Sequence record: OZ035810.1 | Length of the DNA: 64,000 nt | Direction: 5' to 3' (one strand) | From: Gamaleyavirus AN24P2 | Shown: piece by piece, positions 20,401-63,858 of the stretch | How the letters are laid out: each line of letters opens with the position of its first letter | How positions within the stretch are numbered: position 1 is the first letter of the stretch | The notes under the pieces: generated by a model | The model's input: only the letters and a program-made list of their open reading frames with translations | Told to the model about the DNA's origin: nothing | Databases searched by the model: none | Made by a program: the position numbers and the translations under genes

Positions 20401-23400
20401 GAACAGATTGAGCGTAACTTGCGTAACATTGCTCTTGGTGTAGATATTCGCCATAAAGTAATGAACCAGGTACAGACTACTGTTGACCAGATGGCTGCTG
20501 TAGGTGCTCCTTATGTGAACAACGGTAAAATCTCTCTGGAAGGTCTGACTGTAGACCAGCAAGTAGCTAAGCTGAACGAATTGTTTGATGCTGAATTAAA
20601 CAAACGTCGTGATGCAGTACGTGCTGCTAAAGCAGAACCAGTGAAAGAAGTACCAGCAATTGAGCAGGTTGGTCGTGTACTGAAGTCTGGTGTACGTCTG
20701 CTGTCTAATACTGCTATCTCTAAGCTGGCTAAAGAGATGTCTCAGGAACAACAAGCAGTACTGAAAGAAGTACAGAAATCCCCTGCTGCTAAAGACTACA
20801 AGGTTGTCTATGGTACACCTGCCCAACTGGATGCTTACGCTATTGAGAAGAACATTACTCGCCCAGCACCGGAAGATATTGAAGCTGCTGAAGCAGGTAA
20901 TGCATACGGCTGGACTAACTTCGAAGATAAGACCATTTATCTAGTTACCCCTTCCTTAGAAACTCTGGTTCATGAATTGGTACATGCTTCTACTTTTGAA
21001 TCTGTACTGACTCACTATGAAGGTACTCCTAATGAAGCAGTTCAGAACATTGAAGACCTGATGAACCAGTTCCGTGCTCTGGATGTTAAGGATGAATCTC
21101 CGGCAGTACGTGAAGCGTATGCTGATGCACTTAATACCATTAATGGTCACTTGTCCAATGGATTCATTGAGCCATCAATGGCTAAAGCTGCTGCACTTAA
21201 CGAGTACATGGCTTGGGGCTTAACCAACCGTGAACTGATTAGTAAGCAGAAGAAAACCACTGCACTTAAGACTATGGTTCAGGCTGTGTATGAAGCAATC
21301 AAGCGTCTGGTATTTGGGCGTAAGAAAGCACCAGCTAATGCAGATGATATGTTCTCCGGCTTACTGTTTAACTCTGCTGTAGTAATGCGAGGACAAGCTC
21401 CTACTGCTGCTGTAGCTAAAGATACTACCCTGTTCCATAACAAAGCATACGGTGATAATACTCGTCTGGAAGAATTAGGAAAAACCTTCGATAAGTTAAT
21501 TACTGACTACATTGGTTCAGAACCAGTACAACAAGTAATTCGTAAAGGTAAGTTCTCTGATGCAGTAGTGAATGCAACTAAAGTAACCCGTGATGTTCAG
21601 GCTCATGGCTTCGCTATGAATATGCAGGAACAGCGTCTCTTTACTAACATTGTTGCTGCTCTGGCTACTGAGGCTGCTATTAACCCTGCTGCTTTGGCTC
21701 GTGCACAGGAATACTACACGCATGTTACTAAGAACCTGACTGTTGAAGCATTTATGGCTGACCCAGATAGTACTAACCCTGCTGACCGTTATTACGCTCA
21801 ACAGAAGTTCGATACCATCATGGGTGCTAACAATATTGAGTTTGATGCACAGGGACGTTCTTCCTTACTGCCTACCTTTGTTGGGCTGGCAATGGTAAGT
21901 GAAGAAGTACGTAAGGTACTGGCTGATATTCCTGTTATGAAAGCAGATAAGCAATCCGGTAATACAGTTGATGCAATGCTGACTAACATTGGTACTGCTG
22001 CAATGGCTAGTCTGAATGCTCGTGTAGCAGGTGATACCAAAGCTACTAATGTACAGGAAGGTATGGATGCACTGGCTCAAACAATCATGCAGACTAGCCT
22101 TAATGCACAGTCCTTTTATGATTCTGTTGCTACTCCTAGTGGTAATGCTATTGACCGTGCTAACCAGTATCTGGTGGACTCTATTGATGTATTGTCTACC
22201 CGTGCTTTAGAAGGTGCTCGTGAAGTTGCAGCTAATACCAAGAACCCGTTGGTTAAAGGTGCTGCTCATGCTGCACAACTGATTGCTGCTATTGCTACAG
22301 AGAAGAATGGTGAAATCGTAGCCGAAGGAGTTATGGCTGCAATGAACCAGGGTAAGGTATGGCAACCTTTCCATGACCTGGTTAATGACTTAACTGGTCG
22401 TACTAAGAGCAATGCTTCTGTGTATGATTTGATTAAGGCAGTTCGTGCACAGGTACAGGCTGACCGTCAACAATTCCGTGAACATTTGCCTACTACTATC
22501 GCATCTAAGTTCAGCCGTAAGCTGACTAATGATGAGTGGAAAGCAATGCACACTGGCATGGGTAAAACTGACTTGGCTGTCCTGCGTGACACTATGTCTT
22601 TGGCTGAAATCCGTGATTTGCTGTCGGACCAAAAGATTGTTGACCGTGAAGTGAATAAGCTGGAAGCAGATTTGCAGAAGCAAGCTGGACGTAACTGGCC
22701 TCTGATTAGTCGTAAATCTAAGCAACTGGCTCAGTTTATGATTAATGGTACAGTTGGTAATAACTTGCTGCGTAATGCTACTGCAATTTCTCGTTTACTG
22801 GGTGAACGTAAGACTACTAGTTCTATTGTAGATGTAGCTAAACTGGATAAACTGATTACCCTGTATGCACTGGAAGCAATGAGTAATACTGACCGTGAGA
22901 TGCTATCTTCACTGGCTCAAACAGAAGTTGATGGGATTGATTTTGCTACTTCTTACCTGGTTGGTCAGCGTAAAGATGAAATGGCTAAAGCTAAGTCTGA
23001 CATGCGTGCAACCCTGAACCAGTACAAAGGTTACATTCCTGGTGAGACTAAACAAGGTGTTAACCTGATTGTTGCTGAAGACAGTCAATTTGCTGATTTG
23101 ATTGAGAAGTCCTATGTGCGACTGGGTACTTATCAGGGTAGCTCTGCTAATCGTGGTCCAGCACGTAGTTACTACTTTGCACCAGTACAGGCACAGGCTC
23201 CATTCTCACAGGGTATCTTACAGAACGTTCGTAATACTGCTGGTGGTGTAGACCTTGGTACAGGCTTTACGATGGGTACAATGGTAGCTGGTCGTATCAC
23301 TGACAAGCCTTCCGTAGACCGTATCACTAAAGCACTGGCTCGTGGTGAACGTGGTAATGAACCACTGCTGCCTGTGTATGATGACAAAGGTAATGTAGTT

Positions 23401-56181: not shown

Positions 56182-56234
56182 CGCATATTCTCCTAAATGT
56201 GATTAATAACCAAAAGCTGCGGAGCAGCTATTAC

Positions 56235-60207: not shown

Positions 60208-60588
60208 TTAGAAAGTCAGTTTACGAGCATATTTATTCTCGTCTGCTGGGATGTCAGCAACCTCTGCTTTCACACGACGAAGTTGAACTTGCAGGTTAAT
60301 GATACCTTCTTCACCTGGTTCCAGGTTCTGAGCATACTCAATTAACTGTTCCAGCAAGTCATTCTGTGCACAACGCATAGCACGGAAGTCAGCATTGCTG
60401 CTATTAGTAGGCAGTGGCTCCTGAGTATCCAGTGGAATACCAGTAGGCAGAGAGATGAACTTCTCTTCTTCAGAGCCTTCATTAGCTACATAACCAATGT
60501 TCAACCAGAACTGAGCTTTTGGTTTATCAGTTTTAGCAGTGGTAGCAGCAGCGTTAGATTGACCGAAAGTGAATTTTTGAATAGACAT
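60208..60588 (-). CDS. hypothetical early protein
   Basis: ORF 60208..60687; hydrophobic extension dropped in favour of internal ATG ([10 protein letters not shown]...). Confidence 0.4.
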
Positions 60589-60722
60589 TTTGTACTCTCC
60601 AGATAAATGATTATTTGATTGATGGGTTTGTCTGTCGGTGACTAAACCCAAGAAAAGACTTAAGATTTCAATGATTAGTGGATGCATTTACATCATCCAT
60701 AAGACGCGGAGCGTCCTGGTTT

Positions 60723-61082
60723 TTAAGACAAACGTTTAAGCAATTCTGCCTTGGCAGATTTATACTCTGAGTAAACTTCATCGAATGATTTGTCTGAGAC
60801 ACCATAGTTAAGTATGTCTGATTGGTAATTGCTTACAGCATCTACAGCAGCTTCAAAGCGTCCAAGCAGTTCTTCTTTATCTGGTTCTCCCTCACAGGAT
60901 TCCCATTCCCATACATAATCAGTTAGTGGAACCATTTCTCCTTCCACAAAGTAAGGATTGTTGTCAGCATTTCTGACAGTAGAGTCTTCGGTAAGACGTA
61001 TACGTTCTCCTTCCAATTCTCCTACGATAATTGTTCCAACAGGAACATCAGCAGAACCTTTGATACAACGGAATTTAGTCAT
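60723..61082 (-). CDS. acidic early protein
   Basis: 119 aa, Asp/Glu-rich. Confidence 0.45.
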   Translation of the reverse strand: MTKFRCIKGSADVPVGTIIVGELEGERIRLTEDSTVRNADNNPYFVEGEMVPLTDYVWEWESCEGEPDKEELLGRFEAAVDAVSNYQSDILNYGVSDKSFDEVYSEYKSAKAELLKRLS

Positions 61083-61142
61083 GATTTTCTATCCTTAAAG
61101 TAGATATTTATCTACTTTTGTCTATCTATCTAATGTTTATAA

Positions 61143-61168
61143 AAGGAGACTCCGAAGAGCCTCCTAGG
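61143..61168 (-). terminator. rho-independent terminator
   Basis: ggagactc-cgaa-gagcctcc hairpin (one G-T pair), TTTTAT on - strand. Confidence 0.45.
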
Positions 61169-61172
61169 TGAC

Positions 61173-61496
61173 TTAGTCTTTAGTCAGGATGTCAATTACT
61201 TTTGAATATTCTGCGTTATAGATACGAGCGTTCTCAGAATCCTTACAGAATTCCTCAATACTTTTCTTACGCAGAGTCTCAGTCATAGCTGTTTCTTCAG
61301 CTAATTTGTTTACGAATGTATGCATTTCTAATTTAGTACGAATGGCTTGTTTCTCTGCCATAGTACTTACATATGAGTTAAGCATACCAACTGCTTTAGT
61401 AGCAGTACCAAATGTATCTGCAACAGTAGTAGCAGCAGAGTTAACAGTACCAAGTAAAGTTCCTGCGGTCATACGTACAGTAGCTTGAGTAGTCAT
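61173..61496 (-). CDS. hypothetical early protein
   Basis: 107 aa ORF downstream of a structured 200-bp intergenic region. Confidence 0.45.
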   Translation of the reverse strand: MTTQATVRMTAGTLLGTVNSAATTVADTFGTATKAVGMLNSYVSTMAEKQAIRTKLEMHTFVNKLAEETAMTETLRKKSIEEFCKDSENARIYNAEYSKVIDILTKD

Positions 61497-61697
61497 GATG
61501 ATAGCTCCAATAGTTGATGATAGGACGACATGTCCATAACATGCGGAGCATGTGTAACGTGTAGGGTGGGGTAGGGTAGCGGCTACACCGTCAACATACC
61601 GGGGGGGCTAGTTGAGTGTAATGGTGTAGCCTCAGCCACACCACTGTAGCTGTACATAGCTATGACCAAAATGGTATGCAAAAATATGATAGCTATC

Positions 61698-62024
61698 CTA
61701 CTTATAAGCAGTTAAATAGGAGGAGGGAATCTGAGAGAGGATGTAGTCATAGTAATAGCAGTATGCTTCACTATTAGTAGAATTTATGGGCATACCTATA
61801 TAATCAAATACCCACAAACAGAAGTGGTTGAGCTCGTGAATAAGTGTATGTAAATGTTCACTAAAGATACCGATTAATACACGACTACCTGAGTAAGCAG
61901 TATACCCTCTACAACCTGCCAAGTCTGGTTCATGCCCTTTAAGTTTCTTGTACTTTTTGATGAAGGCATCCCGATCGAATACTACCTCTAACTGTACTGG
62001 GTAGGGGGATGTGTTTAGTTTCAT
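61698..62024 (-). CDS. small HExxH-motif protein (putative mini metallopeptidase)
   Basis: 108 aa; HTLIHELNHF contains HExxH. Confidence 0.4.
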   Translation of the reverse strand: MKLNTSPYPVQLEVVFDRDAFIKKYKKLKGHEPDLAGCRGYTAYSGSRVLIGIFSEHLHTLIHELNHFCLWVFDYIGMPINSTNSEAYCYYYDYILSQIPSSYLTAYK

Positions 62025-62371
62025 AGAGATACCTTTGGATAAATGGTGCGTACTCTTTTAAAATCTTTATTAGGTCTACCATCTATAGTAAGCCCAACAA
62101 ACCCTTCTTCTATCCTTGGTTCAAAGAACAAGAATGCGGATTCACCAGCAGGTATCCTTACGGATTCCCCTGGATTAAGGATGGTTAACTTAGCTGGACT
62201 ATTAAGAAGAAGGATGGAACCACGGGTACTATCTGCTGTCTCACCAGGTAGCATGAGCATATGACAGTCTTGCGGGAGTAACCACTCAATAGCTTTATTG
62301 ATATTATCGTAGTAAACAGAGACTTCATCGGTATACTGATGTAGGTACAGTACTCTATTCATAAGGCACAC
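62021..62371 (-). CDS. hypothetical early protein
   Basis: 116 aa ORF, 4-nt overlap with neighbour. Confidence 0.4.
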   Translation of the reverse strand: MCLMNRVLYLHQYTDEVSVYYDNINKAIEWLLPQDCHMLMLPGETADSTRGSILLLNSPAKLTILNPGESVRIPAGESAFLFFEPRIEEGFVGLTIDGRPNKDFKRVRTIYPKVSL

Positions 62372-62682
62372 TCGTCGCTAGATAAATATGAGGTAGAAGG
62401 GTAAAGGGTGATAAGCCTACCGGTTAGAGTTGTAACTACCATAGGTTCAGCAGTGGATAGGATGTATACCCTTGCAAACTCAGATACCTCAATTGATGTA
62501 TCTATCTTAGTGAATGTAATGGGTATACCTAACATTAGACATGTACCTATAAACTCATCAGCCTCTTCACTTGGTTCATATAGGATAGTAGCTCCATTCA
62601 GCTTACCATTTAAACAATCTTGTTTAGTTACTTTACTGCGATAGCAGCTTGTACTTAGTGCAACTAATGAGTAGAAGTACAT
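62359..62682 (-). CDS. hypothetical early protein
   Basis: 107 aa ORF. Confidence 0.35.
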   Translation of the reverse strand: MYFYSLVALSTSCYRSKVTKQDCLNGKLNGATILYEPSEEADEFIGTCLMLGIPITFTKIDTSIEVSEFARVYILSTAEPMVVTTLTGRLITLYPSTSYLSSDECAL

Positions 62683-62685
62683 AAC

Positions 62686-63003
62686 TTACTTCCTTACATA
62701 GTAGTAACGATATTCCCCATTCTCATAGCGACTATCCCATTGGTAGTCATCGGATACCATCATGAATGGGATGGGGTCATTAGCGTTATAGTTGGTATAG
62801 ACAGAAGGTGGAATAATACATACAACCTTGCGGTCATTACCTGCTAAGAATAGTTGACCCCTTACTTCATGGTAGTCCTCTAAGGTAGGAACCAGGATTA
62901 CTTGATGAGGATTACTACTCATAACTTCTTCTAAAGAGAAGTCTGTTGTGTACATGGAACCCTCAGTTTCAGCAAAACTGGGGATGGTCATTATGAATTT
63001 CAT
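62686..63003 (-). CDS. hypothetical early protein
   Basis: ORF 62686..63066; ATG at 63003 preceded by AAGGAAGGA. Confidence 0.35.
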   Translation of the reverse strand: MKFIMTIPSFAETEGSMYTTDFSLEEVMSSNPHQVILVPTLEDYHEVRGQLFLAGNDRKVVCIIPPSVYTNYNANDPIPFMMVSDDYQWDSRYENGEYRYYYVRK

Positions 63004-63367
63004 GATTGATTTTCCTTCCTTTAGGAATAGGTCTGAAGTAAATGGAAAGGGTTTTATTAAAGACATTATGGGCAGCTATCAATTCCCAACCGGGTACTTT
63101 ATAGAAACGTATACCAGGGAAGAACTCATTGAATCCGTCATAACGAGTGAGATCATATACCTTTGGTTCAGTAAGTATCTCGGTATTGAGTTGTAGGTTT
63201 GATAAGAACAAAGAGCCAACAATCTCATGGGACTCTTCGCAGTTAGGTAAGAACACAGATTGCCATGGAGCAATGAACTTACTTACTGCTTCTGGTTCCC
63301 CTAGTAGATAAGGTTCCTGCTTACGAAGTACTCCAGTAATATCAATATCAAAAGCGTAGATGCTCAT
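62969..63367 (-). CDS. hypothetical early protein
   Basis: 132 aa; RBS AGGAGG upstream, preceded by a hairpin. Confidence 0.4.
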   Translation of the reverse strand: MSIYAFDIDITGVLRKQEPYLLGEPEAVSKFIAPWQSVFLPNCEESHEIVGSLFLSNLQLNTEILTEPKVYDLTRYDGFNEFFPGIRFYKVPGWELIAAHNVFNKTLSIYFRPIPKGRKINHEIHNDHPQFC

Positions 63368-63567
63368 ATTTGCATACCTCCTGAAAAAGAAATGGGGTAG
63401 AGCCTCTCGACCCTACCCCTTACCGTTTTCTATCACGGGTCAGTTCATCACCCTAGATACATGTGTATCGTTAGCCTACTAGGTAGGAAAGGAGCCGGGT
63501 AACCCTGACTGTAGAAGTTATTAACTCTTTACGAGTACCGCCACTGTCTACTAGGCGGCATGACTAA

Positions 63568-63858
63568 TCACATCGTCACCATCATCCGAACGCCGTCTTT
63601 GTCTCGTCTGACAGAAACACTATGAGGTAATTTTGTGAATAACACAAGAGTAGATGCCTTCTTTTCTAAAGAGTAACTTTCTCTTGGTTCTAAAATCTTA
63701 ATGCCTGGGCGATTCTCTAATAGCATCATCCCAGCTAATTCATGGTAGGTATCTTCATTGTGTGTGATGATAATATCATCAGGAAGAATACCAGCTTTGG
63801 TATGGTCTACCTCTGCGTATTCATCCTTAGAGTCGTGGACTCTCATATAGATTCTCAA
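63568..63858 (-). CDS. hypothetical early protein
   Basis: 96 aa ORF near window end. Confidence 0.4.
   Translation of the reverse strand: MRIYMRVHDSKDEYAEVDHTKAGILPDDIIITHNEDTYHELAGMMLLENRPGIKILEPRESYSLEKKASTLVLFTKLPHSVSVRRDKDGVRMMVTM

Follow-up and report, generated by a model that had tools for sequence, protein, structure and literature searches.

A minimal gluzincin-like protein, putatively a metallopeptidase, encoded by an accessory right-end gene of an N4-like phage

The stretch of DNA analysed here, 64,000 nucleotides from Gamaleyavirus AN24P2 (sequence record OZ035810.1; hereafter the window), derives from an N4-like podophage of the G7C type in the Schitoviridae, and carries on its minus strand a small open reading frame (ORF; 61698..62024) whose product contains an HExxH motif. 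The locus raises the question of whether so small a protein could be a zinc metallopeptidase and, if so, on what it might act. The ORF starts with an ATG that shares the sequence ATGA with the stop codon of the ORF preceding it (62021..62371), and encodes 108 amino acids (12.6 kDa, isoelectric point (pI) 6.95) that match phrog_1365 (E 7e-29), a PHROG annotated as 'unknown function'. A prior interpretation made from the letters of the DNA alone (the sequence-only reading) had singled out the segment HTLIHELNHF and proposed a minimal zinc peptidase, similar in size to ImmA/IrrE or SprT proteins and expressed early, that could be directed at a host repressor or defence protein; the motif is present as described, with HELNH (H63-E64-L65-N66-H67) encoded by 61824..61838 on the minus strand. 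We favour the view that the product is a standalone, soluble, minimal gluzincin-type metallopeptidase, encoded by an accessory mobile gene and acting on a cytoplasmic, most plausibly host, protein. The enzymatic core of this view we consider reasonably probable, and its proposed target less so.

The motif on its own is unconvincing, given that the amino-acid composition of the window predicts about 0.003 chance occurrences of HExxH in 108 amino acids and about 0.5 per phage proteome; hence conservation is the real test. A profile search of 1.84 billion cluster representatives (50% identity clusters) recovered 583 proteins at E <= 1e-3, nearly all of which are 100-130 amino acids in length. The conservation figures given here refer to the best 149 of these 583 representatives, which share 22-47% identity with the target protein. 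In this set H63, E64 and H67 are present in every sequence (149/149, 100%), E86 is present in 148/149 (99%), the sole exception being a truncated fragment, and Y90 and G40 are conserved at 98% and 97%, respectively. The aligned members are all assigned to phrog_1365 (147/147). Closer to the target we found 124 homologues, all from N4-like contigs of ~70 kb, and HExxH is kept in 120 of 123 of these close relatives; an alignment of 29 of them revealed two invariant stretches, namely N66-H67-F68-C69 and the block S85-E86-A87-Y88-C89-Y90-Y91 (SEAYCYY). Both motifs are likewise kept in homologues from isolated phages outside the N4 group, including Det7 gp68 (Ackermannviridae), phiEap-2 and the Achromobacter phage Axy21. 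The conservation of the HExxH motif across this diverse family indicates, as far as sequence comparison goes, that its occurrence in the target is not a chance match. Furthermore, the putative general-base glutamate, E64, is as conserved as the candidate ligands, which argues for catalysis and not merely for metal binding.

The suggestion that a third zinc ligand might lie downstream is borne out by a strong candidate, E86, which is placed 19 residues after H67 within the invariant SEAYCYY block (codons of E86-A87-Y88-C89-Y90 at 61755..61769, minus strand). Most members have an offset of 19 from H67 to E86, with 18 or 20 seen in a few, and the family as a whole is typified by the signature HExxH-x18-E-x3-Y. 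The position +3 after E86 is occupied by C in 61%, A in 31% and T in 6% of the representatives. In gluzincins the HExxH-bearing active-site helix is followed by a 'glutamate helix' with the motif (E,H)xx(A,F,T,S,G), and the ligands of the ArdC zincin domain, H201, H205 and E229, have the same arrangement as the residues proposed here (PMC7213743). The spacing between the second His and the Glu differs, being 19 in the target and 24 in ArdC, and the target lacks an insert between the two helices.

This constellation bears directly on one alternative, namely that the protein is a DNA-associated, SprT/Wss1-like protease that frees phage DNA of trapped proteins, such as host proteins attached to it covalently or tightly, during replication or packaging. 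The SprT-like/WLM/Spartan proteins (PF10263) share the small zincin core with the target, and theirs is the commonest weak Pfam hit of the target family. The third ligand of Spartan is a His that lies close behind HExxH; in the 149 representatives there is no conserved His downstream of H67, and a conserved Glu is found instead. Moreover, the matches to PF10263, seen in 24/147 members, are all sub-threshold (best E 0.0072), the target has no Zn-ribbon and no basic DNA-binding region or extension, unlike SprT-like and Spartan proteins, and the pI of the family is acidic to neutral (median 6.0, only 18% above 8). We consider a role of this kind improbable.

If the signature indeed reflects a metal site, it should be housed in a compatible fold. 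An AlphaFold2 model of the target based on the 29-sequence alignment (predicted local distance difference test (pLDDT) 93.2, predicted template modelling (pTM) score 0.84) consists, according to DSSP, of a strand at residues 11-15, a helix at 18-29, strands at 40-45 and 48-53, a helix at 57-76 bearing HExxH, a helix at 85-96 bearing E86 and Y90, and a short C-terminal helix. The tail that follows, which is one of two alternative C-termini seen in the alignment of close homologues, is modelled with low confidence (pLDDT block 64). The predicted elements succeed each other in the order of the zincin core, i.e. strand, backing helix, two strands, HExxH helix and Glu helix, and the core of zincin metallopeptidase (MPTase) domains has been described as a mixed three-stranded sheet with a backing helix, placed N-terminal to the active-site helix (PMC5512222). 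Thus, in the model, a conserved HExxH lies on a helix, E86 lies on the next helix in a context that fits the gluzincin motif, and the order of the core elements is that expected of a zincin.

A Foldseek search of BFVD with this model yielded 20 hits at E <= 1e-3 (TM 0.65-0.82), mostly to uncharacterised phage proteins. The annotated neighbours, which are predicted structures with automatic names, are all zincins: a 'PolyVal Metallopeptidase superfamily domain' (E 1.8e-3, probability 1.00, TMq 0.77), an SprT-like protein (E 5.7e-3), a BepA-like protein (E 0.059) and IrrE (E 0.059). Searches of PDB sequences with phmmer and with profiles returned only sub-significant hits, and the top PDB hits of the family profile are mostly metallopeptidases, such as astacins/BMP1 (E 0.085-0.12), myroilysin, an M35 peptidase, an M3B peptidase and Spartan. 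Likewise, the recurrent weak Pfam hits of the 147 members (25 families listed of 75) include, besides SprT-like (24/147), DUF4344 (13), M50B (6) and astacin (3); MPTase-PolyVal is not among these 25 listed families. The similarity to zincin folds anticipated by the sequence-only reading therefore holds for the core topology and for predicted zincins in BFVD, but is not significant for solved zincins. Two further readings were also rejected: the alphaKG-HExxH (alpha-ketoglutarate) oxygenases are much larger proteins with different folds, and a peptidoglycan peptidase is at odds with the lack of a signal peptide and of any hydrophobic or transmembrane segment in the target sequence, HExxH zincins also not being usual lysis enzymes.

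Among the systems compared, the target is architecturally closest to the minigluzincins and to the MPTase domains of polyvalent proteins. The former are soluble zincins of ~100-110 residues comprising the catalytic core only. They consist of a sheet, a backing helix, the HExxH helix and the glutamate helix, and would thus agree with the model of the target in both overall size and order of elements. The named examples are proabylysin, projannalysin and selecase (Lopez-Pelegrin et al. 2013, as cited in PMC4559962). The polyvalent-protein MPTase domains (Iyer, Burroughs, Anand, de Souza & Aravind 2017, PMC5512222), which include the C1 domain of the virion RNA polymerase (vRNAP) and the C-terminal domain of ArdC, resemble the target in occurring in phages and mobile elements. 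They differ in being embedded in giant multidomain proteins, whereas the target stands alone at ~105 amino acids.

The vRNAP of the phage itself (14398..24774, plus strand; 3,458 amino acids) permits a local comparison. Its C1 domain, called zincin-like by Iyer et al. (PMC5512222) and also noted in a 2026 structure paper, contains a conserved HExxH in the form of HELVH at residue 2192 (20971..20985, plus strand; 'SLETLVHELVHA…PNEAVQNIEDL'); Pfam does not recognise this domain as a zincin or peptidase. It is the only other ORF of the window touched by the hidden Markov model (HMM) of the target family (E 0.0027), and in the N4 genome, too, only vRNAP is weakly touched (E 0.0026), the family profile reaching its residues 2180-2235. 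When the family was aligned by hhalign with 11 C1 domains drawn from IMG/VR loci, we obtained a probability of 90.5% (P 1.4e-6) over 56 columns spanning the backing helix, two strands and the HExxH helix, as against P >= 0.098 for a reversed and 20 column-shuffled targets. At the level of the motif, the likeness supports membership in the superfamily by sequence; it does not establish a specific relationship, although C1 is possibly a distant relative. Specific homology is not claimed, as the score collapses without the motif segment.

Under the view that the target is a minimal gluzincin-type metallopeptidase, a Zn2+ ion would be held by H63 and H67 of the active-site helix together with E86 of the glutamate helix, and E64 would activate the metal-bound water. 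The edge strand preceding the HExxH helix (residues 48-53, consensus GVF) might align the substrate backbone, and Y90, located one turn after E86, could stabilise the transition state or orient a His ligand. The gene, horizontally mobile, arrived in this Gamaleyavirus within a two-gene cassette beside the right terminal repeat. Its most likely role would be the limited proteolysis of a specific cytoplasmic protein, either a host takeover or a host defence target, to the benefit of the phage in some hosts. A broader and tentative extension, which we regard as doubtful, is that phrog_1365 comprises widespread single-domain phage 'effector proteases', each cutting one specific host protein, be it a defence component or a factor of DNA or nucleotide metabolism.

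Several observations weigh against this enzymatic view. Firstly, there is no significant match to the target among solved structures, the best zincin in Foldseek-PDB being Spartan at E 0.43, and no Pfam or NCBIfam match was obtained for the target or for 29 close homologues, the target lacking a Pfam hit even at E <= 10. Secondly, DSSP places E86 at the very start of its helix and H67 9 residues from the end of its own. Thirdly, when only the N-terminal 59 residues were aligned with C1, the same register was recovered at P 0.33, and the link is thus mainly one of the strand and HExxH segment. Fourthly, the zincin domain of ArdC, which is without a known substrate, is dispensable for antirestriction (PMC7213743), and this calls for caution. 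Finally, full-length homologues include natural variants with HALNH (P0090, E64 lost; ~72-kb N4-like contig) and YELNH (P0097, H63 lost; ~68-kb contig, in a cluster of 10 member sequences). Given that H63 or E64 has been lost from otherwise intact phage contigs of ~70 kb, peptidase activity would, on sequence evidence, be dispensable in some lineages.

The last two points also speak for an alternative in which a zincin-fold protein acts without proteolysis, binding or inhibiting a host protein stoichiometrically, and has a metal site that is structural or vestigial: the antirestriction phenotype of ArdC does not need its zincin domain, and the natural variants H63Y and E64A are maintained in complete phage genomes. 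However, nearly all of the 149 highly divergent members retain E64 and Y90, even though neither is needed for the fold or for metal binding alone, and substitutions at the catalytic site are found in only 2/123 close homologues. We judge a purely non-catalytic role to be quite unlikely. Given that neither a solved structure nor a Pfam family matches significantly, the target represents a zincin-like family of its own, and is not a member of the ImmA/IrrE or SprT families. In other words, phrog_1365 adds a new and unannotated family to a well-known superfamily, without demonstrable membership in any named family. No named or fused relatives emerged when the profile was searched again against a database of 5.8 billion proteins, and our literature search found no paper that mentions phrog_1365 or annotates the target gene.

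The genomic setting of the gene speaks to its mobility and, in part, to its function. In blastn comparisons the right end of G7C aligns to the window from 64000 to 62380 and resumes from 61727 to 61173, and is thereby interrupted by an insertion of ~650 bp in the window (61727..62380, minus strand) that contains the target and the 116-amino-acid ORF upstream of it. The insertion is flanked by an imperfect direct repeat of ~20 bp derived from the 3' end of gp71.2, which marks both junctions. G7C gp71.2 ends in '…LYPSSYLTAYK*', and the same tail forms the C-terminus of the target, the last ~10 codons of which (…PSSYLTAYK*; 61698..61727, minus strand) are homologous to the 3' end of gp71.2 and constitute the right insertion junction. 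The alignments thus point to a two-gene cassette that was recombined into the 3' end of gp71.2. The right-end block of phage St11Ph5 is extended by two further genes, St11Ph5_00088 and St11Ph5_00089, of which the latter is the homologue of the target. No homologue was found in the whole N4 genome or in the sequenced ends of G7C. In view of these absences, the repeat-flanked junctions and the differing neighbourhoods of relatives, the target is an accessory gene.

The co-inserted 116-amino-acid ORF (62021..62371, minus strand; phrog_12606, unknown function) was considered as a conserved or obligate partner and rejected, as it is not always present: it is full-length in only ~18 phage records, is absent beside the target homologue of PhAPEC7, and bears no relation to the genes that precede distant family members. 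More generally, the neighbourhoods are heterogeneous across phage groups and permit no assignment of function by guilt by association. The family HMM confirmed all 28 of the IMG/VR loci compared, in which SbcCD-like proteins, an intein-containing class II ribonucleotide reductase (RNR), a C5 methylase and a PD-(D/E)XK nuclease are among the neighbours. Given that no partner is conserved, the target protein probably acts alone.

Some of these contexts raise the alternative of a protease, made along with the late genes, that would process the phage's own virion, ejection or packaging proteins, for example the 3,458-amino-acid vRNAP. The homologue of Possum (Cbunavirus) is flanked by terS and terL on the late strand, that of Axy21 follows terL and the lysin, and in about 17 metagenomic loci the order is family member, PhoH and terL. 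The block containing the target is itself divergent from gp69 and the terminase gene gp68, and there is the local similarity to C1, a type of domain for which Iyer et al. proposed processing roles. Nevertheless, the gene is absent from N4 and G7C, whose virions assemble normally, catalytic-site variants occur naturally, and the SbcCD, RNR, methylase and helicase contexts are not morphogenetic. Since terminase-flanking regions and genome ends commonly gather accessory genes, such neighbourhoods constitute weak evidence, and we think self-processing unlikely.

A different context would be expected of an anti-repressor protease of the ImmA/IrrE type that cleaves a cognate or host helix-turn-helix (HTH) repressor. 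The ImmA/IrrE proteins (MEROPS M78, including CapP and RmrA) are HExxH zincins of phage-host conflict with weak structural and sequence echoes in the target, and among the PADLOC defence-system models we likewise noted weak echoes of RmrA, CapP and Lit only. However, these proteins are larger, are encoded beside the gene of their HTH substrate and occur in temperate or defence contexts, none of which is true of the target. Peptidase_M78 is absent both for the target and among the listed weak Pfam families of the 147 members, no HTH domain above threshold was detected in the neighbours of the target, no HTH gene is adjacent in any context examined, and the phage, being N4-like, is strictly lytic. 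We disfavour this mechanism as very improbable. The earlier proposal of a minimal zinc metallopeptidase finds support in the motif, in E86 at gluzincin spacing, in Y90, in the predicted zincin topology and in the BFVD neighbours; its comparison with ImmA/IrrE or SprT proteins does not, as there is no Pfam hit at threshold, no adjacent HTH gene, and a third candidate ligand that is Glu rather than His.

Two lineages of uncultured phages display arrangements of their own. In a subfamily with members of 171-182 amino acids (L038-L053, IMG/VR), which bear a basic, low-complexity N-terminal extension of ~45 amino acids, the order is always a PD-(D/E)XK-like nuclease, a 64-amino-acid ORF, the family member, a PhoH-like gene and terL. 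In another lineage (L036:8-2386 / L037:352-3495) the start of the member overlaps the end of a class II RNR gene containing a LAGLIDADG intein.

When the gene might be expressed depends on where it lies in the physical genome. G7C has an annotated terminal repeat of 1,160 bp with gp1 as its first gene, and its right end reads gp68 terminase (minus), gp69 (minus), gp70, gp71, gp71.1, gp71.2 and terminal repeat. Given that position 8 of G7C aligns to 61631 of the window (blastn), the window would represent a permuted, repeat-collapsed map with its physical left terminus at ~61638 and an approximate terminal repeat at 60480-61638. Such a map places the right-end block next to the left-end early genes as they are joined in a concatemer, and the next ORF downstream of the target (61173..61496) is homologous to N4 gp1. 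In alignment with G7C, a phage with determined genome ends, the target ends ~60 bp before the right terminal repeat, in the DNA that enters last.

Using the definition of N4 virion-RNAP promoters from PMC4496689, we identified three minus-strand hairpins of the N4 early-promoter type that precede TTATGG or TTTTGG. Each has a stem of 5 bp and a loop reading TCC on the coding strand and GGA on the template. These comprise CATGC-TCC-GCATG then TTATGG at 61534..61552, just upstream of the gp1 homologue; GACGC-TCC-GCGTC then TTATGG at 60703-60715; and a copy with one mismatch at ~56213-56225, i.e. 3 matches in the hairpin scan vs 0.74 expected. All three are located downstream of the target and within ~5.4 kb of the proposed left end, mirroring P1-P3 of N4. 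N4 DNA enters with its left end leading, and the remainder follows only upon early and then middle transcription (PMC4496689). By analogy with this entry model, the target would not be expressed before the middle phase. The description of the target as an early protein is thus not supported, with the gene outside the region of the virion-RNAP hairpin promoters and at the physical right end of the genome, a location that guards against its misassignment to the N4 early takeover genes.

If phrog_1365 members are indeed effector proteases, site-specific proteolysis by an enzyme of ~12 kDa would be a common strategy of counter-defence or takeover in N4-like, Ackermann- and T7-like phages and in many uncultured ones. 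A biochemical label for the family (ligands H63, H67 and E86, base E64, and Y90) would serve to annotate hundreds of 'hypothetical' phage genes. The class of mechanism is an expected one; what stands out is the large size of the family and the very small size of the protein, which at ~105 residues would rank among the smallest zincins known and provide a convenient model of a minimal catalytic scaffold. Given that the gene is accessory and cassette-borne, and found in several lineages of therapeutic phages (Gamaleyavirus, Kuttervirus), it is a candidate determinant of host range or anti-defence.

The right-end block upstream of the target (62021-63858, minus strand) has some features of its own. 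No sigma-70-like promoter was found on the coding strand upstream of the block in a promoter scan. A strong hairpin resembling an intrinsic terminator (63394-63419, minus strand; 11 pairs and a T-run) directly follows the gp70 homologue, ~27 nucleotides before the next gene, and the annotation of PhAPEC7 has a terminator at the same site. The genes of the block, all in PHROGs of unknown function, are weakly paralogous to one another: the gp70 homologue (63568..63858) shares 27% identity over 74 amino acids with the 116-amino-acid ORF, and the gp71 homologue (62969..63367) shares 34% over 38 amino acids with the ORF at 62686..63066. The latter ORF (minus strand), as listed, overlaps its upstream neighbour by ~100 nucleotides; as both G7C gp71.1 and the PHROG alignment begin at its residue 22 (MKFIMTIPSF), its true start probably lies at ~63003.
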